Positions 3,983 through 23,912 of a stretch of DNA of 32,000 nucleotides are shown piece by piece. The stretch lies in contig CAWBWK010000002.1 of the NCBI GenBank assembly GCA_963792525.1, positions 642,285-674,284 of the forward strand, written 5' to 3'. The translations under genes and the position numbers were made by a program. This stretch comes from an uncultured Alphaproteobacteria bacterium. Its GTDB lineage: Bacteria; Pseudomonadota; Alphaproteobacteria; Rhizobiales; Aestuariivirgaceae. The notes below the pieces were generated by a model that made no database searches, was not told the DNA's origin, and saw only the letters and a program-made list of their open reading frames with translations. Numbering within the stretch: position 1 is the stretch's first letter; the number at the start of each line of letters is the position of its first letter.

Positions 3983-3985
3983 GGA

Positions 3986-8190: not shown

Positions 8191-8194
8191 GGTG

Positions 8195-8554
8195 CTACTC
8201 GCTCCGACCAAGGGTGGGGGATGCGTCCAGCGGGACTTGCATCAACTCGGGCCAGTTGGAGTTTTTGTGGATGACGGTTTTGTTGCGCGGCTGGTCGGAA
8301 CGTGCCGTATCGCCAAGGAAGCGGCGGCGCGCCGTCGCCCAGGCCGCAAGACACGTTGCATCGCGCGGACCCGCCTCCCCAAGTTCCTGGCAGCGCGTGA
8401 GTTCTGCCCGAAGCGGATCGGTGACTGGCGGTGCTGGTTGGGCGATGCTTGGGTCCTGCGCCTCGTCCTTGCGCACCAGTCCCATCGCGGTCGCTGTGAT
8501 GGCAAACGCAACAAAGACGACTGCTCCGATCTGCGCCACGGTTTGTCCGGTCAT
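8195..8554 (-). CDS. trbK: Putative entry-exclusion protein, TrbK-alt family
   Basis: MTGQTVAQIGAVVFVAFAITATAMGL...DPLRAELTRCQELGEAG...CLAAWATARRRFLG resembles the TrbK-alt proteins found between trbJ and trbL (recall). GAGGG lies 8 nt before the ATG at 8554. Confidence 0.55.
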   Translation of the reverse strand: MTGQTVAQIGAVVFVAFAITATAMGLVRKDEAQDPSIAQPAPPVTDPLRAELTRCQELGEAGPRDATCLAAWATARRRFLGDTARSDQPRNKTVIHKNSNWPELMQVPLDASPTLGRSE

Positions 8555-8565
8555 CGGCTTTGCCC

Positions 8566-9333
8566 TCAATTGCCGTTTCGAAACATTTGGGCGTTGCCGG
8601 GCTGGTAGCCGGTGCCGGGTGCGAGAAAGCGGCGGCGCTGTTCGCGGCCTTGTTCGGCGGCGGTGGCGCGTTCTGCTTCAATGAGGGCCTGCGAGCGCCC
8701 ATTGGCGGCGAGTACAGCCGCGACATCGGAGAGCTGGCTGGTTTGCAGGGCCAGAATCTGATTGCCGGCCTGTGCTGCTTGCAGGGCACCGGTTGCCGCT
8801 TGGCTGCGCTCCACAAGCGCTGACATCTGCACGCGGTTGGCATCGATGTTACCGACCACACCGGCTTGGACCCGCATGGCATCCTGCAGCCCACCGACAG
8901 TGTTCTGCCAGCGTGTGCGGGCGTCGGTGACGAGCTGCTGATCTGAGGCCGAAAGTGCCACGTTGCCATAGGTCGACGTGAAGGCTTGATCGATCTCCTG
9001 AACGTCAAAGGCAATACTTTGTGCTTCCGCCAGCAGGCCTTGCGTGCGCTGCACTGACTGTTGAAGTTGCTGGAGTGCTGAGAAGGGCAGGCTCGTGAGA
9101 TTGCGCGCCTGATTGATCAGCATCTGGGCTTCGTTTTGCAGCGACGTGATCTGATTGTTGATTTGCTCCAGCGCACGGGCTGCCTGCAACACGTTTTGTG
9201 CGTAGTTGGTGGGGTCATAAACAATGCGGCCCCAAAAGGCTTGGGCAGGTAACGCCACGAAGGGTGCTATCACGATTGGAACAGTCATCAATGCGGCGGC
9301 AATGCGCGCGATGCGGAGGGAACGAATGGTCAT
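8566..9333 (-). CDS. trbJ: P-type conjugative transfer protein TrbJ (VirB5-like)
   Basis: 255 aa with a signal peptide ending PAQA-FWG. Coiled-coil body (YDPTNYAQNVLQAARALEQINNQITSLQNEAQMLINQARNL). ATGA overlap with the trbE stop. Confidence 0.85.
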   Translation of the reverse strand: MTIRSLRIARIAAALMTVPIVIAPFVALPAQAFWGRIVYDPTNYAQNVLQAARALEQINNQITSLQNEAQMLINQARNLTSLPFSALQQLQQSVQRTQGLLAEAQSIAFDVQEIDQAFTSTYGNVALSASDQQLVTDARTRWQNTVGGLQDAMRVQAGVVGNIDANRVQMSALVERSQAATGALQAAQAGNQILALQTSQLSDVAAVLAANGRSQALIEAERATAAEQGREQRRRFLAPGTGYQPGNAQMFRNGN

Positions 9334-11791
9334 GGGGAAAACTCCTTTGCTGGGGTGGACCTGAGGTTGGTGAGAGAGGGAATGAGATCAGCGGCCCATG
9401 CGGCACCGCGCAGGCGCAGCCAGGCCGCGAGGAAGCCATCGCGGCCATGCGCAGCAAGGGTCTCTTCGATCTTTGCCTGATCGGTCTTGGCTGATGTTGC
9501 GCAGAGTGCGAGTGCCACTTCGGACAGGCCGAGATCGAAGAGCCGGTTGCCTTGCCTCGACTGGCAGTAGTAGTCGCGCTTCGGCATGGCGCGGGCGACA
9601 ATCTCGATCTGCCGATCATTCAAACCAAAGCGCTGATAGATGGCACCGATTTGCGGCTCGATGGCGCGTTCATTCGGCAAGAAGATTCGTGTCTGGCAGC
9701 TCTCGATGATGGCTGGTGCGATCTTCGATTGATCAATATCGGAAAGCGACTGCGTGGCGAAAATGACTGAAGCGTTCTTTTTGCGCAGCGTCTTCAACCA
9801 TTCCCGCAACTGCCCGGTGAACCCGTCGTCATCAAGTGCCAACCATCCTTCATCGATGATGAGCAGCGTCGGTCTGCCATCAAGCCGGTCCTCGATGCGG
9901 TGGAAGAGATAGGAGAGAACAGCGGGTGCGGCACTCGTGCCGATCAGGCCTTCCGTCTCGAAGGCCATCACGGACTCTTCGCCCAAGCGCTCTTGCTCGG
10001 CATCAAGCAGGCGCCCATAAGGGCCGCCGACGCAATAGGGTTGCAGCGCCTGCTTCAGTGCATTCGACTGCAAGAAAACCGCAAGGCCCGTCAGCGTGCG
10101 TTCGGACACCGGCGCACTTGCGAGCGACGTCAGTGCCGTCCAGAGATATTCCCTAACCTGCGGATCGATGGCGACACCTTCACGCGTGAGGATCGACACG
10201 ATCCAATCGGCAGCCCAGGCGCGCTCCGGTACATCGTGGATGTGGGCGAAGGGTTGCAGGGACACACTGTCGGCGGCACCATCCGTCAAGCCACCACCGA
10301 GATCATGCCAGTCACCACCCATGGCAAGCGTTGCCGCGCGGATCGAGCCCCCGAAATCGAAGGCAAAGACTTGGGAGCCGACATAGCGCCGGAACTGCAA
10401 TGCCATGAGGGCGAGCAGCACGGATTTGCCGGCACCCGTGGGGCCGATGACCAGCGTGTGGCCAACATCGCCAACATGAAGTGAAAACCGGAACGGGGTC
10501 GAGCCCTCGGTCTTGCCGAACAGCAAGGGGGAGGCCCCGAAGTGCTCGTCCCGCGCCGGCCCCGCCCAAACGGCTGACAGGGGTATCATATGGGCGAGAT
10601 TGAGTGTCGAGATCGGCGGCTGCCGGACATTGGCGTAAGCATGCCCCGGCAGTGAGCCAAGCCAGGCATCAACCGCATTGATGGTCTCTGACTGCCGCCG
10701 TGAAGTCCCGGCCCTGGACGATCTTCTCGACAAGACGCAGCTTCTCGGCGGCGATTCTGGGATCGGCATCCCAGACGGTGATGGTCGCCGTCACATAGGC
10801 CTGGCCCGCATAGTCGGCACCCAGCTCTTGCAGGGCCATATCGGCATCGGCGGCTTTGTTGGCTGCATCGGTATCGACAAGCACCGAGGCCTCGTTGGTC
10901 ATCACCTCCTTCAGGATCGCAGCAATGGACTTGCGCTTGGCAAACCATTGCCGCCTGATTTTGGTGAGCAGCTTCGTCGCATCGGTCTTGTCGAGAAGGA
11001 TGGCACGGGTCGACCAGCGGTAGGGAAACGCCAGCCGATTGAGATCATCGAGCAGGCCCGGTGTGGTGACACTTGGGAAACCGACGAGTGTCAGGATACG
11101 CAGGTGCTGATCACCGAGGCGCGGTTCAAGGCCTCCGACAAGCGGTTGATCGGCGAGCAGTGCATCGAGGTAGATCGGCGTCTCGGGCACGCGTACGCGC
11201 TGCTGTTTGGTCGAAACCGTCGAATGCAGATAAGTCAGCGTCTCTTCATCATCAAGCCACTCACATTCCGGCATGAAGTTCTCAATAAGCTGAAGCACAC
11301 GCGTGGTGCGGTCTGCGAAACTGCGCAAGACCTCATGCGGATCAACGCCGCTGTTCGGCCTTGCCCTCATAGAGCCAGCTCTCGGTGCGGGCGGCTTCCT
11401 CGGCGGGTGGCAGATACAGAAACGTCAGGAAATACTTCGATTCAAAATGCGCCTCGACCTCTTCGAATACTGCCTTGCGCTCGGCATCGACAAGGGCAGA
11501 CGCCGCATCGGGAAACTGATCCGATGGATATGCGCCAACCGGCTGGCGCTGTGCCTCGACAAAGATTGCCCAGCCGGAGCCCAAACGCCGGAAAGCATTG
11601 TTGAGACGGCCCGCAACGGCAACGAGTTCAGCCTGCACAGCGGAATCAAGATCGGGTCCCCGAAACCGTGCCGTCCTTTGGAAGCTGCCGTCCTTGTTGA
11701 GAACGATGCCTTCTCCGACCAGCGCAGCCCAGGGCAGGAAGTCTGCGAGCCGTGTCGCTTTGATCCGATATTCGGCGAGGTTCATCATCAT
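9330..11791 (-). pseudogene. trbE: Conjugal transfer ATPase TrbE (VirB4 homolog) split into three ORFs by two frameshifts
   Basis: ORFs 11791-11342, 11370-10669 and 10769-9330 are consecutive TrbE segments. They begin MMMNLAEYRIKATRLADFLPW; ...DPHEVLRSFADRTT...; and ...ETINAVDAWLGSLPGH...GPTGAGKS (Walker A). The joins at about 11350 and about 10695 each need one base removed. Span is 2462 nt, i.e. 3n+2. Confidence 0.9.
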
Positions 11792-11797
11792 GGGACC

Positions 11798-12077
11798 TCA
11801 CACGCTCAAATGACCGGGGATGCGGAGATGACGGCGCACCACATCGACAAATTGCGGATCGCGCCGCGCCGCCCAGACCGCCAAGAAATGTCCCACCGCC
11901 CAGATCAAAAGACCGACCAGCCAGAGGCGAAGCCCCAACCCAATTGCTGCTGCCAATGTGCCGTTCAGAATGGCGATTGAACGTGGTGCACCGCCGAGCA
12001 GGATATGTTCGGTCAAAGCGCGATGAACTGGCACGGTGAAGCCTGGGACCTCAAGCCATTGTTTGAAAGCGTGCCAT
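11798..12077 (-). pseudogene. trbD: Conjugal transfer protein TrbD (VirB3 homolog), probably frameshifted near its 5' end
   Basis: The body VPVHRALTEHILLGGAPRSIAILNGTLAAAIGLGL... is intact from a GTG at 12034. The frame stays open upstream (QWLEVPGFT), and an ATG coupled to the trbC stop (TGATG, 12077) reads MARFQTMA* one frame off. Removing one T near 12052 gives MARFQTMAEVPGFTVPVHR. Span is 280 nt, i.e. 3n+1. Initiation at the GTG cannot be excluded. Confidence 0.55.
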
Positions 12078-12410
12078 CAGATGAGTGCCCCGCCACCGAA
12101 GGAGAAGAACGACAGGAAGAAGCTCGATGCGGCAAAAGCAATGGAGAGACCAAAGACGATCTGGATCAATCGCCGGAAGCCACCTGCGGTATCGCCAAAC
12201 GCCAGCGTCAACCCTGTCACGATGATGATGATCACTGCGACGATCTTGGCAACCGGACCTTCGATTGATTGAAGGATCTGCTGCAACGGTTGTTCCCAGG
12301 GCATCGACGATCCTGAGGCGTGCGCTGCGGGTGCCACCAACAGACTGCCAAGTGTGACGACGGTGGCGGCAGAAGCCGCGTCCAGAGCTGTTTGAAGTGC
12401 GATTGATCAT
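12077..12410 (-). pseudogene. trbC: TrbC/VirB2-type pilin precursor with a frameshift inside the signal peptide
   Basis: The ATG at 12410 forms an ATGA junction with the trbB stop and reads MINRTSN. The pilin frame (TALDAASAATVVTLGSLLVAPAAHASGSSMPWEQPLQQILQSIEGPVAKI...) is one base further on and has only a TTG inside the leader as a start. One extra base lies near the AAA run at 12391-12393. Confidence 0.75.
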
Positions 12411-13387
12411 GCGGCGTCTCCTGCGGTGAGTTCAAAAGCGGGAGTGATCCGATAGTCGCCATCAGCGTTGAGGCCTTCGACGAAGCTGAGTTCCGAAAGT
12501 TGGCGTTGGCTGCCGCGACCGCTGAGCACCGCGATCAAATCGATTGTTTCGGCAACAAGTGCGCGGGGCACGGTGACAACCGCTTCCTGGATCAGCTGTT
12601 CGAGACGCCTGAGCGCGCCAATGGCAGAGCCTGCATGAATGGTGCCGATGCCGCCGGGATGGCCCGTGCCCCAGGCTTTGAGAAGATCGAGCGCCTCACT
12701 GCCCCGCACCTCACCAATCGGAATGCGATCAGGCCGCAGGCGAAGCGAGGAGCGCACAAGATCGGACAGCGAAGCAACGCCATCCTTGGTGCGCATCGCG
12801 ACAAGATTGGGAGCAGCGCATTGCAGCTCACGCGTATCCTCGATGAGGACAATGCGATCTGAGGTCTTTGCGACTTCCGCGAGGAGCGCATTGGTGAGCG
12901 TGGTCTTGCCCGTTGATGTGCCGCCGGCGACGAGGATGTTGCGCCGCTCCGCCACGGCTCGCGCAAGGATCGCGGCTTGGTCAGCCGACATGATCTTTGC
13001 TTCGACATAGTCGAGGAGCGTGAACACGGCGACAGCGGGCTTGCGGATGGCGAAGGTTGGTGCGGTAACGACCGGCGGCAACAAGCCTTCGAAGCGCTCG
13101 CCAGTCTCCGGGAGTTCCGCCGAAACGCGTGGACTCTTCGCATGGACTTCGACGCCAACATGATGTGCGACGACGCGCACGATCCGTTCGCCATCAGCAG
13201 CGGAGAGTTCCATCCCTGTGTCGGAAAGGCCTTGGGACAATCGGTCGATCCAGAGCCGTCCATCTGGATTGAGCATCACCTCGACGACTTGCGGGTCTTC
13301 CAAGAAGCCAGCGATTGCGGGACCGAGTGCTGTGCGCAACATGCGCGCCCCGCGAAGAACTGCTTCTGATTGCTGGTGAGAAATCAC
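12407..13387 (-). CDS. trbB: P-type conjugative transfer ATPase TrbB (VirB11 homolog)
   Basis: Walker [10 protein letters not shown], Asp box VLIEDTRE, Walker B/His box [12 protein letters not shown]...[11 protein letters not shown]. Start set at the GTG at 13387 behind GAAGGGGA. ORF 12407..13507 extends further upstream with a non-homologous-looking peptide. Confidence 0.88.
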
Positions 13388-13551
13388 TACTTTGTCCCCT
13401 TCGCATTGGCCGCCGCTCACGGAGGCACTGCATTGGGGTTCAGTAAGAAAGGCAGAATTTGATCTGCCGCAACAGGTTTGTGGGCGTAGTAGGGATGTGG
13501 CGTGCAAATACAGGGAAACGGCTAATGTGCTGTATGCGGCTATGCCACTCC

Positions 13552-13570
13552 TAATCGCTAATAGCGATTA
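13552..13570. promoter_or_regulatory. Perfect 19-bp palindrome TAATCGCTA-A-TAGCGATTA upstream of trbB
   Basis: Read directly. 9-bp arms with a 1-nt centre, about 165 bp upstream of the trbB start in the trbB/cargo intergenic region. This geometry is typical of a dimeric repressor operator. Confidence 0.35.
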
Positions 13571-13693
13571 TTCGGCGCTTATTGCCTTTGCCAGTTGTAT
13601 GACGTTTCTCAGTTCGAAATGTTGTCCGATACAATTTTGTGAGCGGACATACTCAAACTCAGCGTAATCGACGTGATTGACCCTAAGCGGTCT

Positions 13694-14527
13694 TCAATGG
13701 GTACGCCTCAAGACCGCGTTGAAAAGACCGATCCTTCCTTCTTCGAGATTGCGTAACATATTGCGGCTTATCGTGGCGAAGTCGCTGCCAAGAAGCAGAT
13801 GCAGTCCGAGAGGTGAAGGAGAGCCAGTCTTCGCGACTTTCGCGCGCGCTTGCACCTCCTCAAGCGAAGTTTTCGTCGTGTCCATCCATGTCGTGGTCCG
13901 AAAACCTGCGCGCTCCAGCTTGTCGCGAGTCTCCTCGGCGGTAATCAAGAAGCTGATGTTCGGTTCACGTGCCCACGAGAGCGGATAGAACGGAGGGCCA
14001 CCGCTTCCCGCAACAACATCCTGAATTGCCAATTGGCCTTCCGGCTTCAGCACACGGAACATTTCCGCATACAGCGCAGGGCGGTTAGCTACGTTCATCG
14101 AAACATTCTGGCACCAGACGATGTCGAATATTTGGTCCGCAAAGGGCATGTTGAGCGCATCCCCTTGACGATAGTCCACCAGCGCGCTCAACCCGGTGAG
14201 ATGCGCCAGCATATCGGCGACACGGACGAACCCGGAGGTAAGATCGAGGCCACTGACGCGGCAACCGTACTGCTTTGCCAGAAACCGAGAGGGTCCACCA
14301 ATACCGCAGCCCACATCGACAACTCGCTCGGACCCTCTCAGATGCAAGAGCTCAGCGAGCCTGACGGTCGCGCCACGCTGGCCCGTATGAAACTCGTCCA
14401 CGGCCGCGAGATCATCCGGCGTCAAGCGCTCGACATCTTTGCCGGCCTGTTTGAGTGCGGCCAATATCGTTGCGCCAAGATCGGGACGGTCATAATTACG
14501 CTCGATAGCCTGATGCGCCTCAGCCAT
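13694..14527 (-). CDS. Class I SAM-dependent methyltransferase (small-molecule type)
   Basis: 277 aa. Motif I VVDVGCGIGGPSRFLA, post-I GLDLT, motif II/III FDIVWCQNVSMNV...LKPEGQLAIQD. Confidence 0.85.
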   Translation of the reverse strand: MAEAHQAIERNYDRPDLGATILAALKQAGKDVERLTPDDLAAVDEFHTGQRGATVRLAELLHLRGSERVVDVGCGIGGPSRFLAKQYGCRVSGLDLTSGFVRVADMLAHLTGLSALVDYRQGDALNMPFADQIFDIVWCQNVSMNVANRPALYAEMFRVLKPEGQLAIQDVVAGSGGPPFYPLSWAREPNISFLITAEETRDKLERAGFRTTTWMDTTKTSLEEVQARAKVAKTGSPSPLGLHLLLGSDFATISRNMLRNLEEGRIGLFNAVLRRTH

Positions 14528-14603
14528 GACACGCTCCTATGGTCATTCAGAGCCAGCTTTCGACTTCGACAAAAATGTCGCATGAACGTGCTCAGCAAGC
14601 AAT

Positions 14604-14649
14604 TCAAGATCAAGCACTTCTCGAAGTCAAGATGAAGCACTTCTCGAAG
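14604..14649. repeat. Tandem duplication, 2 x 23 bp (TCAAGAT[C/G]AAGCACTTCTCGAAG)
   Basis: Units 14604-14626 and 14627-14649 differ at one position. They lie 77-122 bp upstream of the methyltransferase start codon. Confidence 0.8.
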
Positions 14650-14781
14650 GAAGAATCATGAACGCCAAGTCTCCTTGTGGCCCGTTTGAGAAGATGATGG
14701 TCATTCGCAAATTGTCCGATCATCACCGGTGAGCGGAACTCCAGCAAGTGATTTCAGCTTTCTTCGAAAATTTGTGCGTTA

Positions 14782-14892
14782 TAGCGGTTCCGGGTTAGTT
14801 TGAATGATACACCAAACCCCTTCATTCCCGCGTTCGCGGGGATGACGAGGTGAAAATGTAAAGACGATTCTGACAAAACCGGAACCGCTCTA
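14782..14892. repeat. About 110-bp MITE-like / intergenic palindromic element
   Basis: Terminal inverted repeats AGCGGTTCCGG (14784-14794) and CCGGAACCGCT (14879-14889). Internal hairpin CCCGCG-TT-CGCGGG (about 14827-14840). No coding potential. Confidence 0.45.
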
Positions 14893-15033
14893 GGTGTCGC
14901 AATGCGGACCTTGCGCGAAGCTCTCAAATTATGCGTTCATGACCTTGAGCAGAACTCGTATTTATTAGCAGAAATGCAGTTGAGGATTTTCGCTGCTTGA
15001 TTTTATACGAATACTGATATATATATCCCTGAT

Positions 15034-15344
15034 ATGAAACGCATATTCTTCCTTGGTGACACGCTGGAACAGATTCGCTCATTTCCAGTGAAGGCCCGCA
15101 GTGATGCCGGTTCAGAACTGCGTCGTGTTCAAATGGGTCTGGACCCAATGGATTGGAAACCAATGAAAACCATTGGTGCTGGCGTGCGTGAGATCAGGGT
15201 GCGGGATGTAGCAGGCGCGTTTCGTGTTGTGATGTGTTGCACAGAGCAGATGCCATTTATGTACTGAATGCATTTCACAAGAAAACACAGAAGACACCCA
15301 AGCATGAATTGGAACTGGCGGCGCGGCGCCTGAAATTGATCTGA
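15034..15344 (+). pseudogene. RelE/HigB-type toxin (phage Gp49-like family), frameshifted
   Basis: MKRIFFLGDTLEQIRSFPVKARSDAGSELRRVQMGLDPMDWKPMKTIGAGVREIRVRDVAGAFRVV, then the frame is lost near 15228-15232. The conserved C-terminus VLHRADAIYVLNAFHKKTQKTPKHELELAARRLKLI* continues in the -1 frame and stops at 15342-15344. One base appears to be missing. Confidence 0.7.
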
Positions 15345-15354
15345 TGGAGAAGGA

Positions 15355-15651
15355 ATGATGGAAAGGAAAATCAAGGTTGAAAGCTTTGCCAATGTCTGGG
15401 ACGCCATCATGGACACGCCCGAAGAGGCGGCAGCCATGACCATGCGTTCAGACTTGCTCATCACTCTCACCGAACATGTCAAAGCCTGGAAACTCACCCA
15501 AGCCGCCGCAGCAAAACGCCTCGACATCACCCAGCCGCGCCTCAACGACCTGCTCCGTGGGCGGATCAATAATTTCAGCATTGATGCGTTGATCAGCTTG
15601 GCCCGAAAAGCGGGTCTGACAGTCGAACTCAAGATCAAGAAGGCGGCTTAG
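15355..15651 (+). CDS. XRE-family HTH antitoxin partnered with the Gp49-like toxin
   Basis: 98 aa, starting 10 nt after the toxin stop. HTH LTQAAAAKRLDITQPRLNDLLRGRINNFSIDALISL. Intact. Confidence 0.75.
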   Translation: MMERKIKVESFANVWDAIMDTPEEAAAMTMRSDLLITLTEHVKAWKLTQAAAAKRLDITQPRLNDLLRGRINNFSIDALISLARKAGLTVELKIKKAA

Positions 15652-15657
15652 ACTTCA

Positions 15658-15739
15658 AGAGGGCAAAGCGATTCCCTTAAGTCAAAAAGGGAAGCGTCCC
15701 CTATTCTCCATTAAAAGAGGGAAACGTCCCCTATTCCCC
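15658..15739. promoter_or_regulatory. Three tandem ~30-bp repeats, each with an imperfect palindrome GGGAA(G/A)CGTCCCC
   Basis: AGGGAAGCGTCCCCTATTC (from 15688) and AGGGAAACGTCCCCTATTC (from 15718) are 30 bp apart. A degenerate copy GGGCAAAGCGATTCCC lies at 15661-15676. All are 150-230 bp upstream of the first ankyrin-cytochrome gene. Confidence 0.4.
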
Positions 15740-15888
15740 CCGCTGTTTTCTCCTCCTGAAAAATCCGAAAGGGACATTCTCATTTTGCGCTAACAGCTTT
15801 GTAGACGGCGTTGTCATCGCAGCGAAATCATGTTAGCATCTTTATGTCCAATAGTGCTGTTTCCCTTGTTTCCCATGGGAGTCGTAAA

Positions 15889-16797
15889 ATGCGCAGATTG
15901 TTGATTTTCATTTTTCTTGCCTTTGCCCAAGTTCCGAATGCAAACTCAGCAGCCATTCATGAGGCCGCCAAAAAAGGCGACCTCGCCGCACTTACTGCGG
16001 CTTTGAACGCCAGAACCGATGTCAACGAGGTCGATGGCGGTGCAACGCCGCTTTATTTTGCGGCGGTAAGGGGGCGCCTGGAAGCGGCAAAGCTTCTCAT
16101 TGCGCGCGGTGCCGACGTCAACGCCAAGACGAAAATCGGTTCGCCCCTGATGGCGGCGGCGGCGAAAGGCGGCCCCGAGCTAGTAAAATTGTTGTTGGCC
16201 AACGGCGCAAATCCAAACGCGGAGCCAGAAAGCCAGACGGCGCTTCATCTTGCTGCGGAGCACGGCTGCCTCGCATGTGTCAAGGCACTGGTCGAAGCGG
16301 GCGCAAATGTGAATGCGCAACACAAGTATACCCCCCGACAAGAAACGCTGGTCACAACCCCCCTCCATCTCGCCATCACTTACAGTCATGGTGACGTTGC
16401 GGACTATCTCATCTCGCACGGCGTCATCTTTCCAAAACCCGCCCCGATTGGGGCCAAACTTACCTCAGCTGATTCCGGCAAAGGGTGGAAGTTCTTTGAA
16501 AAAGAATGTCAATCTTGCCATACCTTCAGTCGGGTACACGGCGACAACTATGGTCCTGGCCTATGGAATGTTGTCGGTCGCAACAAGGCGTCTCTCAACT
16601 ATAGGGGATACTCCAAGACGCTGCGGGCATTGGACGGTGATTGGACTTACGAGGATTTGAATATTTTTCTTTCTGGACCAACCGTCACCACGCCCGGCGT
16701 GAACATGCAAATGCAAGGTGCACCCAACGAGGATGATCGTGTGAATGTGATCGCCTATCTGCGCTCGCTCAGCGACAATCCTGTTCCGCTGCCGTAA
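15889..16797 (+). CDS. Secreted ankyrin-repeat / class I c-type cytochrome fusion protein, paralog 1
   Basis: ORF 15811..16797 trimmed to MRRLLIFIFLAFAQVPNANS-AAIHEAAKKGD (signal peptide). It has 4-5 ANK repeats (GATPLYFAAVRGRLEAAKLLIARGADVNA...). The C-terminal domain carries CQSCH, GPGLWNVVGR, PGVNMQMQG and VNVIAYLRSL. Confidence 0.85.
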   Translation: MRRLLIFIFLAFAQVPNANSAAIHEAAKKGDLAALTAALNARTDVNEVDGGATPLYFAAVRGRLEAAKLLIARGADVNAKTKIGSPLMAAAAKGGPELVKLLLANGANPNAEPESQTALHLAAEHGCLACVKALVEAGANVNAQHKYTPRQETLVTTPLHLAITYSHGDVADYLISHGVIFPKPAPIGAKLTSADSGKGWKFFEKECQSCHTFSRVHGDNYGPGLWNVVGRNKASLNYRGYSKTLRALDGDWTYEDLNIFLSGPTVTTPGVNMQMQGAPNEDDRVNVIAYLRSLSDNPVPLP

Positions 16798-16817
16798 TCC
16801 AAACAAGGAGAAGCGCC

Positions 16818-17729
16818 ATGAACTTCAAGCTGGTGCTGTTTTCTGCGATCCTCTTTTTTGGTCCAGCGGTTTCCCGTGCCGCCGAAATTCATGAGGCCGC
16901 CAAAATAGGTGATCTCGCCACGCTGACTGCGACCTTGAACGCTGGAGCCGATGTCAACAAGTTGGCTGGCGGCGCAACGCCACTCTATTTTGCGGCGATC
17001 AGGGGGCAACTCGAAGCGGCGAAGCTTCTCATCTCGCACGGCGCCGATCTCAATGCCAAGGCGAACTACGGTTCACCCCTGATGGGTGCTGCGGCAAGAG
17101 ATACGCCGGAGCTGGTCAATTTGTTGCTGGCCAATGGCGCTGATCCAAATGCAGACCTGGACGGCAAGACCGCGCTTCATGTTGCGGCTGAGCGTGGCTG
17201 CCTCGGCTGCGTCAAGGCACTGGTTGATGCGGGCGCAAATGTGAATGCGCAACACAGGAAAGTCGGCGGACAGTACATTCTGGTTACGACCCCCCTTCAC
17301 CTCGCCATCTTTTACGAACATGGCGATGTCGCTGACTACCTTGTCGCGCACGGTGTCATTTTGCCGACGCCCGACCCGATCGCTGCCAAACTTGCCTCCG
17401 CCGATCCCGGCAAAGGGCGTGAATTTTTTGAAAGTGAATGCGGCAAGTGCCACTCTATCATTTTGGGACTAGATGATACGCTCGGCCCCAACCTTTGGAA
17501 TATTGTCGGGCGCGACAAGGCGTCTCTCGACTTTGCTGAATATTCCAAGACTTTGCTGGCATTGAAGGGGGACTGGACTTACGAGGATCTCAATACGTTT
17601 CTCTCGGGACCAGCCATCACTACGCCCGGCGTAGACATGCAAACGGAAGGTGCGCCCAACGAGGATGATCGTGTGAACGTGATCGCCTATCTCCGCACCC
17701 TCAGCAAAAATCCTGTTCCGCTGCCGTGA
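16818..17729 (+). CDS. Secreted ankyrin-repeat / class I c-type cytochrome fusion protein, paralog 2
   Basis: MNFKLVLFSAILFFGPAVSRA-AEIHEAAKIGD signal peptide, ANK repeats, then CGKCH, GPNLWNIVGR, PGVDMQTEG and VNVIAYLRTL. AAGGAGAA Shine-Dalgarno in a 20-nt spacer after paralog 1. Confidence 0.87.
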   Translation: MNFKLVLFSAILFFGPAVSRAAEIHEAAKIGDLATLTATLNAGADVNKLAGGATPLYFAAIRGQLEAAKLLISHGADLNAKANYGSPLMGAAARDTPELVNLLLANGADPNADLDGKTALHVAAERGCLGCVKALVDAGANVNAQHRKVGGQYILVTTPLHLAIFYEHGDVADYLVAHGVILPTPDPIAAKLASADPGKGREFFESECGKCHSIILGLDDTLGPNLWNIVGRDKASLDFAEYSKTLLALKGDWTYEDLNTFLSGPAITTPGVDMQTEGAPNEDDRVNVIAYLRTLSKNPVPLP

Positions 17730-17749
17730 TCCAAACAAGGAGAAGCGCC

Positions 17750-18691
17750 ATGAATTTCAAGCTGGTTTTGCTTTCTGCGATCCTCTTCTTTGGTCCAGCG
17801 GTTTCTCATGCCGCCGAAATTCATGAGGCCGCCAAAAAAGGCGACGTCGCTGCGCTGACTGCGGCCTTGAACGCTGGAACCGATATCAACGCGATGGATG
17901 GCGGCGCAACGCCGCTATTCCTTGCGACGGCGCGGGGCCACTTGGAAGCGGTGAAACTTCTCATCGCACGCGGCGCCGATGTCAATGCATTGACGAAAAT
18001 GGGTTCGCCCCTGATGGCCGCTGCGAAAAGAGACACGCCCGAGCTGGTGGTCTTGCTGTTGGCAAAAGGCGCAGATCCAAACGCCGACTTGAAAAGCAAG
18101 ACGGCGCTTCATGTCGCTGCCGAACGTGGCTGCCTCGGCTGCGTCGTGGCATTGGTCGAGGCTGGCGCAAATGTAAATGGGCAACACAGGGATACCGAGG
18201 TCTACGGCGGGCAATATGTGCGGATGACGACCCCTCTTCATCTGGCCATCCTTTTCGATCATGAGGATGTCGCGGCTTACCTCAAGGCGCACGGCGTCAT
18301 CATACCGAAGCCCGCGCCCATCACAGCCAAGCTAGCATTCGCCGATCTCGACAAAGGAAAAACAGTTCTCGAAAACAAATGCCGCCATTGCCATATCGTC
18401 ATTCCGGAAGAGGGCGCAGATTCGACCGTCAATAAGGAAGGTTGGGGCCCTGGCCTATGGAATGTTGTCGGGCGCGACAAGGCGTCTGCCGACTACAAAG
18501 GGTATTCCCCGACCATGAAGGCATCGGAAGGCACTTGGACATACGAAGATTTGAATACGTATGTTGCGGGACCGGCCGTCACCACACCAGGCACCTACAT
18601 GCAAATGGAAGGCGTGCCCGACGAAACTGATCGCGTCAATCTGATCGCCTATTTGCGCACACTCAGCGACAGTCCTGTTCCGCTGCCGTAA
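17750..18691 (+). CDS. Secreted ankyrin-repeat / class I c-type cytochrome fusion protein, paralog 3
   Basis: ORF 17726..18691 trimmed to MNFKLVLLSAILFFGPAVSHA-AEIHEAAKKGD. It has the same spacer and Shine-Dalgarno as paralog 2. Motifs CRHCH, GPGLWNVVGR, PGTYMQMEG and VNLIAYLRTL. Confidence 0.87.
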   Translation: MNFKLVLLSAILFFGPAVSHAAEIHEAAKKGDVAALTAALNAGTDINAMDGGATPLFLATARGHLEAVKLLIARGADVNALTKMGSPLMAAAKRDTPELVVLLLAKGADPNADLKSKTALHVAAERGCLGCVVALVEAGANVNGQHRDTEVYGGQYVRMTTPLHLAILFDHEDVAAYLKAHGVIIPKPAPITAKLAFADLDKGKTVLENKCRHCHIVIPEEGADSTVNKEGWGPGLWNVVGRDKASADYKGYSPTMKASEGTWTYEDLNTYVAGPAVTTPGTYMQMEGVPDETDRVNLIAYLRTLSDSPVPLP

Positions 18692-18718
18692 TCCAACGAG
18701 CCATGATCCGCTTTCCGA

Positions 18719-19669
18719 CTATTTTTTGACAGGTACTGATGGCGGAAGTGGTGGTGGGTTGTCACTCATGGTGCGCATGTAAGCGATGAGGTCGGCCCGG
18801 GTTGCTGGGTCCTTCAATCCAACGAAACGCATCTTTGTGCCTGGCACATAATCCAAAGGCGAGGAGATGAATGCGTTGAACTCAGATAGTGTCCATTGGC
18901 CGTGCAGACCGGAAAACGCCTTGGAATAGCCGACACCTTCAACGCCTGCTTTATTCTGCCCAAGAATGCCCCAAAGATTGATTTTGGTGCTGCTCAAGCC
19001 ACCTTTATCAACGCTGTGACAATAGTTGCAAGACATCTTGAATATCCTTTCACCTGCGCTTGGCGAGGCAGATGTGAGGAGGCCCGTGACCGGTTTCACA
19101 ATTGGGCCGCGAGCACCGTACGCCCTGAGCAGATCGACAATGTGATTTTGGTTGTTAAAAGCGGCTGAATGAATTGCCGGGTAACCGGGGTAACCGGGAA
19201 ATTCAAGTTTTTCCCCAGTATCTGCGCTGCGCGTGTTCACGTCGGCACCATTTGCGACGAGGAGATCTACGACACCCGCATGGCCACCTTCGGCAGCAGC
19301 GTGTAAAGGGGTTGTTCCATCGTTCCAACGGGCACCCACATCAGCGCCATGGGCAATGAACACGGCAACAATGCTTTCATTGCCTTTTCGGGCCGCCAGG
19401 TAAAGCGGTGTGCCCAATATTTTGTGGGCGGCGTTGACGTTGGCTCCGTTGGCGATCAACAATTCGGCCAACGCCTTGTTTCCCGACAAACTCGCCTGAT
19501 GCAGCGGCGTACCGAGCGATCTTTGGTTCTGGTTGATGTCCGCGCCACTGGCAATCAGTTGCTTCACCTTTTCAATGTCGCTACCCTTGACCGCATCATG
19601 AAGTGGACCTGCATTGGACTGTGAAACCAGCGCTATCAAAACACCGACGAATAACAGGAGCTTGCCCAT
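18719..19669 (-). CDS. Secreted ankyrin-repeat / class I c-type cytochrome fusion protein, diverged paralog 4
   Basis: ORF 18719..19714 trimmed to MGKLLLFVGVLIALVSQSNA-GPLHDAV (GGAGGG upstream). It has 5 ANK repeats (GTPLHQASLSGNKALAELLIANGANVNA...). Motifs CNYCH, INLWGILGQ, PGTKMRFVG and ADLIAYMRTM are closest to mitochondrial/c2-type cytochrome c. Confidence 0.85.
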   Translation of the reverse strand: MGKLLLFVGVLIALVSQSNAGPLHDAVKGSDIEKVKQLIASGADINQNQRSLGTPLHQASLSGNKALAELLIANGANVNAAHKILGTPLYLAARKGNESIVAVFIAHGADVGARWNDGTTPLHAAAEGGHAGVVDLLVANGADVNTRSADTGEKLEFPGYPGYPAIHSAAFNNQNHIVDLLRAYGARGPIVKPVTGLLTSASPSAGERIFKMSCNYCHSVDKGGLSSTKINLWGILGQNKAGVEGVGYSKAFSGLHGQWTLSEFNAFISSPLDYVPGTKMRFVGLKDPATRADLIAYMRTMSDNPPPLPPSVPVKK

Positions 19670-19933
19670 ATTCCCTCCGTTCAAAGACGCAGCCCGCGCA
19701 AGGAAGAATTCCAAATGGCTCCCGCTACGCGGCTAAAATCTCGTCACGTGGCAGCCTCAATCAACACATGCAAAATCGCGAGCTTCATTTCAGCATAGTA
19801 TGTGGGTCGAGCCGTTGCAACAACACCCCATTCCGCACCGCAGAGTCCAGAAGCGTCGCCTTTCCACCCTCATCCGTCAACCCGTCGACGCGGCCCATGG
19901 GAAAACCGGAACCTTCCCTTTTCACGTATAGTC

Positions 19934-20257
19934 CTAAGCAGCCTTCTTGATCTTGATCGCAACTGACAATCCGGCCTTGGCCGCAATTGTCATCAGGGCA
20001 TCGCGGCTGAGTCTGTTGATGTACTCCCGCAGCAGGTCATTGAGCTTCGGTAGGGTGACGACTGGCCGCTTGGCGGCGGTGACTTGACTGATACGAAATG
20101 ATTTTACGATTTGCACGAGGGCCATCATCACGTGAATGCGGGCCATCACGTTTGCCGCCACCACTGGATTGGCCTCAATGGCATCCCTCACACTTTCAAA
20201 CTGTTCATATTTCAACTTGTTCGTTGCCTCACCAAGCACCCAGGAGGCCGACCACAT
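19934..20257 (-). CDS. XRE-family HTH protein, paralog of the 15355-15651 antitoxin, third gene of the higBA locus
   Basis: The C-terminal two-thirds aligns with the other antitoxin (KLKYEQFESVRDAIE.., LPKLNDLLREYINRLSRDALMTIAAKAGLSVAIKIKKAA versus ..QPRLNDLLRGRINNFSIDALISLARKAGLTVELKIKKAA). The ATG at 20257 forms a TGATG junction with the higA stop. The start is uncertain (TTG at 20260 or TTG at 20215 are alternatives). Confidence 0.6.
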   Translation of the reverse strand: MWSASWVLGEATNKLKYEQFESVRDAIEANPVVAANVMARIHVMMALVQIVKSFRISQVTAAKRPVVTLPKLNDLLREYINRLSRDALMTIAAKAGLSVAIKIKKAA

Positions 20258-20529
20258 CAACCTGCCAATTGCATACGCGCCTGCGCAAGATCATAAGAGG
20301 TCTGCATTCTCATCAAGGTATCAGCACTGATCTTGAACTGTCGTTCAAAGCGCAGGGCCATGTCGGCGCTCAGGCTGGCATGGCCATTCAGCACTGTGCT
20401 AAGCGCTTGCCGCGACACGCCCATCTCTGCGGCCACATCGGTAATGCTACGGCCACTGGGGTCGATGATTTCGCTCATGAGCCAACGTCCGGCATGCACG
20501 GAGATCGAGGGGTGCATTTTAAGAGCCAT
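20257..20529 (-). CDS. higA: HigA-family antitoxin (XRE HTH)
   Basis: 90 aa, HPSISVHAGRWLMSEIIDPSGRSITDVAAEMGVSRQALSTVLNGHASLSADMALRFERQF is the canonical HigA/VapI architecture. It overlaps the 3' end of the higB remnant. Confidence 0.8.
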   Translation of the reverse strand: MALKMHPSISVHAGRWLMSEIIDPSGRSITDVAAEMGVSRQALSTVLNGHASLSADMALRFERQFKISADTLMRMQTSYDLAQARMQLAG

Positions 20530-20808
20530 GATAATCCTCCAGGTTCATATCTGTAACAGTGCCCGCTTGTGTCACAGTGAAAGTCAGGCGCCAATTGCGT
20601 GTGACAGTCATAGACCAGGTTCCCGCTCGGTTGCCTGTGAGAAGGTGCAAGCCAAGTTCGGCGGCCTTGCCAATTCATCGAGCGAAGCGGTGGCCGCAAT
20701 AAAGGAGAGCATCGCACGCAACCGCTCAACATAATCCACAAGGCCTTTTGAATTTCCAGTCAAAAAGAAACGCTTCAGAAGCTTGTGTGAGATGCTTTCA
20801 ATTTACAT
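20519..20808 (-). pseudogene. higB: HigB-family toxin remnant (stop at codon 2 plus one frameshift)
   Basis: ATG at 20808 is followed directly by TAA. The frame then reads IESISHKLLKRFFLTGNSKGLVDYVERLRAMLSFIAATASLDELARPPNL. After a missing base near 20650-20655 it continues GLHLLTGNRAGTWSMTVTRNWRLTFTVTQAGTVTDMNLEDYHGS*. Both halves match the HigB (RelE-fold) consensus by recall. Confidence 0.65.
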
Positions 20809-20810
20809 TC

Positions 20811-20827
20811 GTCAAGTGATACTTGAC
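20811..20827. promoter_or_regulatory. Perfect palindrome GTCAAGT-GAT-ACTTGAC, candidate HigA operator
   Basis: It lies 3 bp upstream of the higB start codon. A related half-site ATCAAGTG occurs at about 20840-20847. Confidence 0.45.
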
Positions 20828-21076
20828 ATTGGCAAATGTATCAAGTGCAACACGACGGAATGATTGGAAGCATAGTCCCCCTCTGCTGCACAAGTGCAGC
20901 GTTTTACAAAAGAACCAAACGCAATCAACGCCAAGAGTTTGGTCGTTGCTAAAATCCGTTGCAGTTCAGCAAGCATGTCAGCTTCTGGCCCATCTCAGAA
21001 TTGCGCCTGACCAATTGAGATGTCCGGTACACAGATGGAAGCGGACTTCGATGCACTCGCCAGATGTCGGGAAATT

Positions 21077-21508
21077 TTATGAGCTGCAAGTGCTGTCTGG
21101 CACGTCTTCCGAAATCTCATGCAGCAGCTTTGGCCCCTTTGCCAAGCGGCGCCCGAGCGCTGCAACAAACGCATCATAGCGCTCACCCGCTTGCGCCCGT
21201 GCCGCAGCTTGCGAAGGCTCTGGCAGTGGCGGGTTCGTGGTTAGCCAGAAACGGACGAAGACGGCCAGCATTTCAATTGAGATGCCGAGATCGCGTTCCA
21301 TCCGCGTCATGCGCCGGTCGATCTGATCGAGGCGCTTGGTTGTTGCGGCTTCCTGCCGTTCTGCCGCATCGGGAGAGAGGAAGGATGCAATGGCTGCTTC
21401 AGCGACGAGCGAAAGCGAATGGTCGCGCCGCGCTGCGTATTCAGCAAGTGTTTTCAGGATCGCGGGTTCTACATAGACTGAGAGGCGCTGCTTTTTGGAG
21501 GGTTTCAT
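21077..21508 (-). CDS. Ribbon-helix-helix (CopG-like) protein conserved between traG and trbB
   Basis: ORF trimmed to MKPSKKQRLSVYVEPAILKTLAEYAARRDHSLSLVAEAAIASFL (RHH motif), 143 aa. The ATG is 10 nt after the traG stop. The position is typical for trb-type ICEs (recall). Confidence 0.75.
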   Translation of the reverse strand: MKPSKKQRLSVYVEPAILKTLAEYAARRDHSLSLVAEAAIASFLSPDAAERQEAATTKRLDQIDRRMTRMERDLGISIEMLAVFVRFWLTTNPPLPEPSQAAARAQAGERYDAFVAALGRRLAKGPKLLHEISEDVPDSTCSS

Positions 21509-21518
21509 GTAATGCGCC

Positions 21519-22625
21519 TCACAGGTCCATGCCGTCGTTGGGATCAAGTGAGACTTGGCGCGCGACACCTTGGACGATCTGGGTCATGCGACGTGCGCGC
21601 GTTGCGTCGTCATCGGCGTCGTCTGCAAACTCGTCGTGGAATTCGTTGGTCGGTGTTTGTTTTTCCGCTGCCACCTCGGGCCGGATGAGTTCAGGTTGTC
21701 TTCGCTTTTCCGATCCGGTCGGGTCTTCATTGTCTTCAGAGTTTCCATAGCTGGGAACAGGTGATCCGGATGGACTGGCGGGTAACGGCAATACGCTCCA
21801 GTCGTCATGTTTGGTCGAGCTTCCGTGGGCTGGTTCGGGCGGCGGCAGGACACGCTCCAACAATCGGCAATCTTCAAAATAGCGCACCTTCTTTGCGCGG
21901 ATCGGCGGTGTGCCAGACACCATCACGATTTCATCTGCTGGAGGCAATTGCATCACCTCGCCGGGCGTGAGCAGCGGTCGCGCGGTTTCTGAACGCGAGA
22001 CCATCAGATGGCCAAGCCAGGGACTGAGACGATGTCCAGCATAGTTTTTCATGGCCCGCATTTCGGTCGCCGTGCCCAGCGCATCGGAGACGCGCTTTGC
22101 CGTGCGCTCATCATTGGTGGCAAAACTCACGCGCACGTGGCAGTTGTCGAGGATGGAATTGTTTGGGCCATAGGCCTTCTCGATCTGATTGAGTGACTGG
22201 GCGATCAGGAAACTCTTGAGCCCGTAACCCGCCATAAAAGCGAGTGCGCTTTCGAAAAAATCGAGCCGTCCGAGGGCCGGGAACTCATCAAGCATCAGGA
22301 GCAAACGGTGACGCTTCCCCTTCGCGTTCAGGTCTTCGGTCAGACGCCGCCCGATCTGATTGAGGATGAGGCGGATGAGTGGCTTGGTGCGGACGATGTC
22401 CGATGGCGGCACGACCAGATAAAGCGTCGACGGTTGATCACCGCTAACCAGCTCGCCGATGCGCCAGTCACAGCGCCGCGTCACTTCGGCGACAACGGGA
22501 TCGCGGTAGAGGCCCAAGAAGGACATGGCTGTGGAAAGAACGCCGGAGCGCTCATTGTCCGACTTGTTGAGGAGTTCGCGCGCGGCACTGGCAATCACGG
22601 GATGGGGGCCGGCCTCGCCTAGGTG
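21519..22625 (-). pseudogene. traG: Type IV coupling protein TraG/VirD4, C-terminal ~368 codons only; 5' end removed at the IS3 boundary
   Basis: The frame is open right up to the IS end (HLGEAGPHPVIASAARELLNKSDNERSGVLSTAMSFLGLYRD...LLMLDEFPALGRLD (Walker B region)...). The N-terminal TM segments and Walker A are absent from the window. Confidence 0.9.
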
Positions 22626-22677
22626 TGAACCGCACCGGGTTTGCCGGAGACCTTCAACCTGACTAAGGAAGAAGGCT

Positions 22678-23010
22678 ATGGAAAAAAGTAAAACATCAAA
22701 TCGTTATTCACCTGAAGTGCGGGCGCGCGCCGTTCGCATGGTGCTGGAGCATCAAAGCTCCTACGAAACGCAAGCGGCCGCGATTGTGGCCATTGCCCCT
22801 AAGATTGGTTGTATCACGGAGACATTGCGGCTGTGGGTTAGGCAGGCTGAACAGGATAGCGGCAGTCGTGATGGTGTTACCAGCGGTGAGCGTGATCGGA
22901 TCAAAGAGCTTGAGCGGGAAGTGCGTCAGCTACGGCAGGCCAATGAAATTCTGCGAAAGGCTTCAGCTTATTTTGCGCAGGCGGAACTCGACCGCCCGTT
23001 CAAGCCATGA
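22678..23010 (+). CDS. IS3-family transposase OrfA (HTH / leucine zipper)
   Basis: 110 aa, [17 protein letters not shown]...[32 protein letters not shown] is a typical IS3 OrfA. Confidence 0.9.
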
Positions 23011-23912
23011 TCAGTTTTATAGATGATCAGCGGACCGTTTATGGGGTCGAGTCGATCTGCAGAGTTCTGCCAATTGCCCCATCCACTTATTATCATCAAT
23101 TGGCATGTCGTGCCGATCCAACAAAGCTGTCACCACGTTGCCAGCGAGATGTTAGTTTAAAGCCGAAGATCCAAAAAGTTTGGGACGATAACTGGAAGGT
23201 CTATGGCGTCAGGAAAACCTGGCGGCAGCTGCGCCGTGAAGGCGTTGATGTGGCAAGGTGCACGGTTGCTCGCCTCATGGCTGGCATGGGATTGCGGGGT
23301 ATTGTTCGGGGAAAGAGTTTAAAAACAACGATCTCTGACACTTCTGTGCCGTGCCCGCGTGACAAGGTGAACCGTCAGTTCCGAGCATCTGCCCCAGACA
23401 TCCTTTGGGTCAGTGATTTTACTTACGTGTCAACGTGGCAAGGATTTACCTACGTTGCATTCATCATCGACACCTTTGCCAACCGCATTGTTGGCTGGAA
23501 AGTGTCACGGTCTGCAAAGACTGACTTCGTTCTGGATGCGCTCGAGCAGGCGCTTTATGCACGCCGACCTGCCCATCAGGGTGGATTGATCCACCACAGC
23601 GACAGGGGAAGTCAGTATGTCTCTATCCGTTACACTGAACGTTTGGCAACAGCTGGAATTGAACCATCCGTTGGCAGCGTAGGCGATGCCTATGACAATG
23701 CTTTGGCTGAAACAATCAACGGCCTTTATAAAACCGAAGTCATCCGCAGGCGCTGCTCGTGGAAAACAATGGAGGACGTAGAAATGGAAACTCTCAAATG
23801 GGTCGATTGGTTTAATCATCGTCGTTTGCTTGAGCCAATCGGCAACATCCCGCCGGCAGAGGCTGAAGAAAACTATTACGCCATGATGGACATCTCCAAA
23901 ATGGCAGCTTAA
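23007..23912 (+). CDS. IS3-family transposase OrfB (DDE / rve integrase core)
   Basis: 301 aa, WVSDFTYV...HHSDRGSQY...[15 protein letters not shown] supplies the D, D, E catalytic context. The frame is -1 relative to orfA and is open from 22947. It is probably expressed as an OrfAB fusion by frameshifting. Confidence 0.9.

Follow-up and report, generated by a model that had tools for sequence, protein, structure and literature searches.

Four paralogous genes, here called A to D, of an uncultured alphaproteobacterium of the family Aestuariivirgaceae (contig CAWBWK010000002.1; the window is the whole 32,000-bp stretch of it that was analysed) encode exported proteins that join ankyrin repeats to a class I cytochrome c with a single haem site. 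With a probability of roughly 0.55, these proteins are partner-specific tethered periplasmic electron carriers, in which the tether is a protein-binding scaffold and which were diversified by tandem duplication. Tethered cytochromes c (cy, c552 and CycM) are textbook alphaproteobacterial electron transfer without a freely diffusing carrier. Both domains are known, as is the tethering of cytochrome c; an ankyrin scaffold as the tether is, as far as found, undescribed.

All four open reading frames (ORFs) are intact, paralogous and situated where an earlier inspection of the letters (the sequence-only reading) had placed them (Table 1), and its description of the products as exported fusions of ankyrin repeats with a mono-haem class I cytochrome c holds. 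Pfam ankyrin families match all four proteins above threshold (E values of 1e-26 to 1e-34), as does PF00034 Cytochrom_C (28.1, 30.7, 30.1 and 23.5 bits for A, B, C and D, respectively; curated cut-off 21.3). Each protein contains one CxxCH (CQSCH in A, CGKCH in B, CRHCH in C and CNYCH in D), a distal methionine motif about 60 residues beyond it (PGVNM, PGVDM, PGTYM and PGTKM, in the same order) and a (V/L)IAY(L/M)R motif. Across 121 sequences, C208, C211 and H212 do not vary, and M274 is kept in at least 90%. Two of the motifs first ascribed to all four proteins need amendment: the GP(G/N)LW segment is replaced by KINLW in D, and the ending NP(V/P)PLP reads SPVPLP in C and is followed by PSVPVKK in D. 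The N-termini, judged by eye, are of the Sec type, with one or two basic residues (K/R), about ten hydrophobic residues and putative cleavage sites ANS/A, SRA/A, SHA/A and SNA/G (A to D). Ankyrin repeat 1 comes directly after this short signal peptide with its AxA-type site, with no uncleaved transmembrane anchor, and the first ~20 residues are of low confidence in the structural models of B and D, consistent with a signal peptide. An exported location and a class I His/Met haem site are near-certain. The NCBIfam model of soluble cytochrome c550 (NF043008, CycA) gives A to D 27-47 bits, below its 240-bit equivalog cut-off.

AlphaFold2 models of B (121 homologues; predicted local distance difference test score 92.9, predicted template modelling score (pTM) 0.87) and D (81 homologues; 90.2 and 0.86) are confident and have a common two-domain plan, with five ankyrin repeats (four to five had been counted by inspection), an extended hairpin at repeats 4-5, a short connector and a cytochrome domain of ~115 residues. 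The connector prolines P183, P185 and P187, along with I188 (B numbering), are nearly invariant in the 121 sequences, and this conserved proline-rich connector, together with the high two-domain pTM, suggests that the ankyrin and haem domains hold a fixed mutual orientation. Foldseek searches of the PDB matched ankyrin proteins and designed ankyrin repeat proteins (DARPins) only, over residues ~20-185 (E values of 1e-10 to 1e-11, root-mean-square deviation 1.5-2.2 Å); neither Foldseek nor a sequence profile search found a PDB entry joining an ankyrin domain with a cytochrome c.

The haem domain evidently descends from membrane-anchored cytochromes of the c552/cy/CycM group. The best match to the B haem domain in the PDB is the membrane-anchored c552 of Paracoccus denitrificans (3m97, E value 5e-18), followed by the class I cytochrome in 9fks and related entries (1e-17) and by cy of Rhodobacter capsulatus (6xkw, 3e-15), with mitochondrial cytochrome c and c2 trailing at ~1e-11. 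The generic mitochondrial/c2-type label originally given to the domain should thus be replaced by c552/cy/CycM-type, which fits better. The haem-domain relatives that the family profile retrieved from metagenomes are mostly of a non-ankyrin type (36-49% identity); these have an N-terminal transmembrane helix (e.g. MDSFELNKILGAVLGTCL) and an Ala/Pro-rich linker, and they often end in ...YLRSLSDSPKPLP. The C-terminal tail YLRSLSDSPxPLP is common to the nearest non-ankyrin metagenomic relatives and the ankyrin fusions; because the anchored relatives carry it, the SDxPxPLP tail, noted earlier as NP(V/P)PLP, is inherited from the c552/cy/CycM lineage and is a hallmark of that lineage, not of the fusion. 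In A to D, the signal peptide and ankyrin domain occupy the place of the anchor helix and linker, and with neither an N-terminal anchor nor a flexible linker the four proteins are derivatives of the group rather than members of it. The cytochromes cy, c552 and CycM are membrane-tethered carriers that move electrons between the bc1 complex and terminal oxidases (doi:10.1101/2020.06.27.175620).

Genes A, B and C stand head to tail, and D is convergent to their array. The A-B-C direct repeat has a period of 932/932 bp and 78-85% nucleotide identity over 300-nt blocks, far above chance. The two 20-nt spacers, thought to be near-identical, are in fact identical, each reading ATCCAAACAAGGAGAAGCGCC with a ribosome-binding site AAGGAG inside, and because these identical spacers hold a Shine-Dalgarno sequence, A, B and C very probably form one transcription unit. 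The candidate promoter upstream of A (Table 1) is a weak consensus match only, in a region that holds three such sites versus 2.6 expected from shuffled sequence. No Rfam family was detected in 13500-22700, and the tandem junction TCCAAACAAGGAGAAGCGCCATG, sought as an exact pattern in metagenome contigs, gave no match.

A closely related array (A-B-C') is present on a 670-kb metagenomic contig (locus L001), between RTX-like genes and an IS4-type transposase that cuts its third copy. This third copy (10933-11610) is a chimera, B-like in its first ~175 residues and C-like in the rest, and is interrupted by the transposase gene just after CRHCH; being chimeric and cut by an insertion sequence (IS), it points to recombination, and to decay, within such arrays. 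The segment common to the two loci (Table 1) is the unit that moved between contexts.

Identity to A at the amino-acid level is 68% for B, 64% for C and 35% for D. The sequence-only reading had regarded D simply as a more diverged copy, but D represents an anciently diverged subfamily and not a decayed fourth copy. As a query it retrieves a separate set of full-length relatives, its synonymous divergence from A-C is saturated, and its haem domain is nearer to the anchored cytochromes (47% identical to one of them) than to A-C (33-39%). A distance tree of the haem domain sets an A-C group, which includes Mesorhizobium proteins, apart from a D group; this tree, a neighbour-joining tree of 120 residues, cannot decide between one fusion event and two. 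Repeat number, the position of the hairpin insertion and the domain junction are alike in both subfamilies, for which reason a single old fusion would be more economical than two.

Substitution patterns among the tandem copies were assessed by the ratio of nonsynonymous to synonymous divergence (dN/dS, Nei-Gojobori method). Gene-wide dN/dS among A, B and C is 0.32-0.38, with dS of 0.6-0.8 or saturated between copies; comparison of A and B with their L001 orthologues gives ~0.35, from fewer than 20 substitutions per gene. A to C are thus under purifying selection of moderate strength. By region, the ratio peaks in the repeat 4-5 hairpin (~1.0; 46% identical among A, B and C) and in the loop after CxxCH (0.58; 7% identical), values that rest on 10-14 codons in three sequences, and the most constrained regions are repeat 4, the connector and the GPNLW...KAS segment. 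The segments first named as most variable were this loop and the last ankyrin repeat: the loop and the distal ankyrin region are indeed variable, but the latter variation lies in the hairpin and not in the last repeat itself. Of the 26 canonical ankyrin target-binding positions (the equivalents of those randomised in designed ankyrin binders), 18 carry substitutions among A, B and C, versus 34 of the remaining 124 positions of the ankyrin domain (Fisher p 9e-5), and entropy across the family is 2.20 bits at the canonical binding positions versus 0.92 bits at the others. The net charge of the haem domain also differs (+1 in A, -7 in B, -4 in C and +6 in D). This pattern of variation is compatible with partner diversification, and equally with relaxed constraint on exposed positions.

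It is improbable that chance alone has preserved the four genes on a decaying mobile element, as functionally redundant copies of an accessory gene that are subject to drift, although this explanation is second in weight among the four alternatives considered here. The constraint on A to C is just moderate, one copy of the L001 array is chimeric and IS-cut, and the surrounding region of the window is rich in pseudogenes and IS elements, as drift would have it; the four frames are nevertheless intact, the haem ligands and framework residues are invariant, the family is conserved across genera, and dS of 0.6-0.8 or saturated combined with low dN implies that the copies have long been kept open. 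The intactness of A to D amid decayed transfer genes had been offered as a sign of selection. Decay is real, with two frameshifts each in trbE and trbL and a traG gene cut by an IS3 element, but seven other trb genes are intact, dN/dS indicates merely moderate constraint, and the L001 counterpart of C is itself truncated by an IS, so that the argument carries only part of the weight placed on it.

As partner-specific tethered carriers, the proteins would be exported by Sec and would be soluble in the periplasm, with one haem attached covalently at CxxCH and ligated by His and Met. The ankyrin groove would dock on a specific periplasmic or membrane protein, bringing the haem domain into position to give electrons to this partner or take them from it. 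Differing partner preferences would have arisen as the tandem copies diverged in surface charge, in the loop after CxxCH, in the repeat 4-5 hairpin and at the docking positions. A bolder version, which must be considered doubtful, is that the ankyrin repeats serve as an evolvable address label, each paralog docking its c552/cy-type haem domain on a different redox partner in the periplasm or membrane.

Several observations weigh against the tethered-carrier interpretation. The canonical binding positions are the least constrained in any ankyrin protein, and their variability is no proof of diversified docking; the codons behind the two dN/dS peaks are few. No partner gene was found, as clustering of flanking ORFs at 24 loci yielded no family common to more than five of them. 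The flavoproteins that neighbour family members in three contexts have no signal peptides. No FNR/FixK box (TTGA-N6-TCAA), which would link the genes to respiration, is present upstream of A or D.

Besides the L001 array, ~30 loci that encode relatives lie in unrelated chromosomal and plasmid contexts. Mesorhizobium relatives are found behind SBP56, Fer2 and CoA-binding genes; another relative lies between a BBE-type oxidase and a lipase, and another downstream of a methyltransferase and upstream of a GMC oxidoreductase. Further members stand beside an ankyrin-only gene or, on plasmids, among many hypothetical genes. None of the BBE-type, GMC-type and Pyr_redox_2 flavoproteins has a signal peptide, and neither has SBP56; all of them were considered as redox partners and rejected on that ground.

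Several kinds of neighbouring gene recur among the relatives. Class III adenylate/guanylate cyclases with C-terminal tetratricopeptide repeats (TPR) are encoded within 6 kb of family members at no fewer than five loci of different lineages, sometimes two per locus (L022, 2568-4346; L025, 7029-9014; L172 and L173; L176), with none in the window; this adjacency may be due to chance, such cyclases being numerous in rhizobia. A small secreted protein rich in Cys and His (~125 amino acids), with the motif YPPACCHGD...HICLHPT.E.ENCF and no Pfam match, is encoded 0.1-1.7 kb from a member at four Mesorhizobium loci (L013, 5499-5870; L014, 7359-7742; L018, 4055-4333; L028, 5433-5708) and has no homologue in the window. 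Ankyrin-only proteins with signal peptides are encoded next to or near members at L171 (7179-7931) and L172 (14722-15312), the latter gene adjoining that of a secreted YHS-domain protein. It seems that these bacteria repeatedly encode periplasmic ankyrin proteins.

Such proteins raise the weightiest of the alternatives, which is nonetheless an unlikely one: that A to D are AnkB-like periplasmic helpers of a haem enzyme or of haem handling, with the ankyrin domain binding the client and the haem domain serving as haem donor, protective reductant or peroxide-related electron source. Catalase-linked periplasmic ankyrin proteins are documented; in Pseudomonas aeruginosa, the periplasmic ankyrin protein AnkB reportedly supports the catalase KatB (katB-ankB operon). 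The exported ankyrin-only proteins at L171 and L172 would suit this function as well. Yet no catalase or peroxidase gene occurs in the window or in the annotated neighbourhoods of the relatives, and a haem bound covalently at CxxCH cannot be donated.

The A-C subfamily has a further conserved feature, a CxxC (GCLxCV) with which the outer helix of repeat 4 begins, in place of the consensus GH..VV. Genes A, B and C encode it, as do at least 90% of 121 relatives of this subfamily, whose consensus is nearly invariant GCLxCV; it is missing from D and from the D subfamily, which has canonical GGHAxxV. The two cysteines could form a structural disulfide, be redox-active or bind a metal, and they possibly couple thiol/disulfide chemistry to the haem. 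A haem- or thiol-based periplasmic redox sensor or relay, in which the ankyrin domain passes the state to a signalling protein such as a cyclase-TPR protein, would account for the conserved CxxC and for the cyclase-TPR genes within 6 kb of members at L022, L025, L172/L173 and L176. This function, third in weight among the alternatives, has little probability: the conserved distal methionine argues for a six-coordinate electron-transfer haem and not a ligand-binding sensor haem, the D subfamily keeps the architecture without the CxxC, the window contains no cyclase, the many cyclases of rhizobia may explain the adjacency elsewhere, and at least one cyclase-TPR protein has no membrane segment, so that its TPR part may be cytoplasmic.

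In the window, A to D lie within a stretch of ~8 kb between trbB and a 3' fragment of traG, and they had accordingly been called cargo of a conjugative element. Their position between the two genes stands, but no consistent association with transfer genes is seen at L001 or at the ~30 other loci, and most members are not near type IV genes. Because a 94% identical array is found elsewhere in an unrelated context and the contexts of other relatives vary, the link to the degraded Trb/TraG element is incidental, reflecting accessory, mobile genes and not a role in transfer. The same setting invites the thought that A to D are effectors aimed at eukaryotic hosts via type IV secretion, the last in weight of the alternatives and a very improbable one. 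Ankyrin repeats are typical of type IV secretion substrates, many hosts of the relatives are plant symbionts, and the proteins have weak NCBIfam matches to Legionella Dot/Icm ankyrin effectors (models with names beginning T4SS_Ank). These matches score 16-54 bits versus cut-offs of 450-1400, which amounts to generic ankyrin similarity; neither a Sec signal peptide nor haem attachment in the periplasm is compatible with a cytoplasmic substrate of type IV secretion; and Trb is a conjugative mating-pair apparatus, defective here. An effector role was rejected on account of the signal peptides and of scores far below threshold.

The architecture is not rare but abundant in databases. A search of 5.8 billion proteins with B as the query gave 1428 matches, the best 120 of which are full-length two-domain proteins of ~295-340 amino acids save for a few fragments. 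Matches among RefSeq Mesorhizobium proteins are named just "ankyrin repeat domain-containing protein" or "c-type cytochrome". Species-representative genomes with full-length members include those of more than 12 Mesorhizobium species, metagenome-assembled genomes of Aestuariivirga, Rhizobium sp. Root1220 and unclassified alphaproteobacteria, and 16 plasmids in PLSDB (Mesorhizobium, Rhizobium and Aminobacter) carry a member, one of them with three matching places. A whole-protein HMMER search of a 1.84-billion representative library was dominated by giant eukaryote-like ankyrin proteins, with one full-length relative (P0354) among the best 150 matches. Neither Pfam nor NCBIfam has a model for the ankyrin-cytochrome c architecture, and a full-text literature search found no paper on it, in agreement with the earlier statement that no characterised member is known. 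The family, a fairly widespread one of soil alphaproteobacteria, is thus present in databases, mainly from Mesorhizobium, Rhizobium, Aminobacter and Aestuariivirga, under generic annotation and uncharacterised.

Table 1. Positions in the window of genes A to D, their motifs and spacers, and features of the surrounding conjugative element.
Feature	Position	Strand	Remarks
Gene A	15889-16797	+	302 aa; signal peptide, five ankyrin repeats, class I cytochrome c domain
Gene A, motifs	16264-16281; 16507-16521; 16693-16707	+	repeat 4 CxxC; CQSCH; PGVNM
Gene B	16818-17729	+	303 aa
Gene B, motifs	17196-17213; ~17250-17291; 17439-17453; 17454-17483; 17625-17639	+	CxxC; repeat 4-5 hairpin; CGKCH; hypervariable loop; PGVDM
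Gene C	17750-18691	+	313 aa; relative to A and B, hairpin 3 aa longer and 7-aa insertion after CRHCH
Gene C, motifs	18128-18145; 18380-18394	+	CxxC; CRHCH
Gene D	18719-19669	-	316 aa; CNYCH at 19016-19030; C-terminal extension PSVPVKK; no repeat 4 CxxC
A-B spacer	16798-16817	+	ATCCAAACAAGGAGAAGCGCC then ATG; Shine-Dalgarno
B-C spacer	17730-17749	+	identical to A-B spacer
Candidate sigma-70-like promoter	15811-15839	+	TTGTCA-17-TAGCAT with TG extension; ~50 bp upstream of A
Segment shared with L001	15756-18405	+	2650 bp, 94.4% identical to A-B-C' array; starts 133 bp upstream of A
trbB	12407-13507	-	last gene of trbB-I mating-pair-formation operon; left border of ~8-kb variable region
trbE	9333-11788	-	probable pseudogene; three frames, frameshifts near 11360 and 10693
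trbL	6872-8190	-	3' end in three frames relative to pMLb protein; two frameshifts implied
traG 3' fragment	21519-22598	-	coupling protein, profile positions 209-455 of 468; right border of variable region
IS3 element	22678-23912		orfA 22678-23010, orfB 23007-23912; adjoins traG fragment
Gp49/HigB-like toxin gene	15034-15267		adjoins HTH_37 gene; appears frameshifted
HTH_37 antitoxin-like gene	15355-15651	+	~240 bp upstream of A
Second HTH_37 gene	19934-20260	-	diverged; ~265 bp upstream of D
HigA-like HTH_3 gene	20257-20529		right-hand toxin-antitoxin remnant

The transfer region of the window is P-type (MPF_T), consisting of trbB-C-D-E-J-K-L-F-G-I and a DUF2274 gene (3770-13507, minus strand) and collinear with Mesorhizobium plasmid pMLb. 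Seven of its genes (trbB, C, D, J, F, G and I) seem undamaged. The frameshift sites of trbE and trbL are not long homopolymers, and the frameshifts look genuine rather than homopolymer sequencing errors. No 5' part of traG was seen beyond the IS3 element. The variable region between trbB and the traG fragment contains, in addition to A to D, a class I S-adenosylmethionine (SAM)-dependent methyltransferase gene (13694-14527, 1.4 kb from A) and two toxin-antitoxin remnants, which flank the A-D block in mirror image (15034-15651 and 19934-20800); the right-hand remnant includes the apparent broken end of a HigB-like toxin (...NLEDYH). Methyltransferases of the same broad class, with orthology not shown, are encoded near relatives at L172/L173 (directly upstream), L176, L174 and L171. 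Between the left-hand antitoxin gene and the start of the L001 homology are two tandem 26-nt copies of AAAAAGGGAAGCGTCCCCTATTCTCC (15684-15739), 88% alike and each with a short palindrome, and a related inverted copy is located upstream of D (19901-19922).

Immediately beyond the transfer region, at its DUF2274 end (3770-3982), a LysR-type regulator gene (2143-2919), truncated at its N-terminus with the last ~26 helix-turn-helix residues kept, may mark the element boundary; no tRNA gene that would mark an integration site is present in the window. Farther to the right, the window encodes a Gabija anti-phage system (27989-30746), consisting of GajA (547 aa, PADLOC E value 1e-223) and then GajB (383 aa, 1e-129). 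The system is preceded by a DUF4143 ATPase gene (26704-27924) that matches the candidate defence family PDC-S01 (E value 9e-172) and is followed by a metallophosphatase ORF (30700-31953).

If the address-label version holds, gene duplication and a few changes at binding positions would rewire periplasmic electron flow with the enzymes unchanged, and bacteria would for the first time be seen to set redox partnerships by means of a repeat-protein scaffold. The use of a protein-binding scaffold in place of a membrane tether would be a new solution to carrier tethering, retargetable by few substitutions. The family occurs in well-studied, genetically tractable rhizobia (Mesorhizobium and Rhizobium), where it would be easy to test and has probably been overlooked. 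The weight of these considerations is limited by the ordinary nature of the domains, by the abundance of the architecture in databases, by the lack of an inferable partner or phenotype, and by the fact that no long-standing question depends on the family.

Among known systems, AnkB of P. aeruginosa is likewise an ankyrin protein exported to the Gram-negative cell envelope and functionally tied to a haem protein, but it has no cytochrome domain and is encoded beside its catalase client, whereas A to D carry a fused haem domain of their own and have no catalase gene close by. DARPins and rigid DARPin fusions, which are synthetic binders unlike A to D, are the best structural match to residues ~20-185, and the natural variation falls at positions randomised in DARPin libraries. 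CcoP of cbb3 oxidase and the subunit II-cytochrome c fusions of caa3 follow the same principle of a class I haem domain kept beside its partner; in these the haem domain is fused straight to the enzyme, in contrast to the generic protein-binding scaffold of A to D, where, it is proposed, the partner is set by docking and changeable through evolution of the scaffold. The nearest counterparts are c552 of Paracoccus denitrificans (3m97, 1ql3), cy (6xkw) and CycM of Bradyrhizobium, with a homologous haem domain (~40-47% identity, E values of 5e-18 to 3e-15) that has the same CxxCH, GPNL-type segment, PG..M, IAYL helix and SDxPxPLP tail and that is likewise held by an N-terminal module instead of diffusing freely. 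Unlike them, A to D have a cleavable signal peptide, a folded five-repeat ankyrin domain and a short conserved connector, with no transmembrane anchor or long flexible Ala/Pro linker, and are predicted to be soluble, so that the tether, if any, would be a protein. The carriers c552, cy and CycM work with the bc1 complex and with aa3 and cbb3 oxidases, partnerships not established for the ankyrin fusions.

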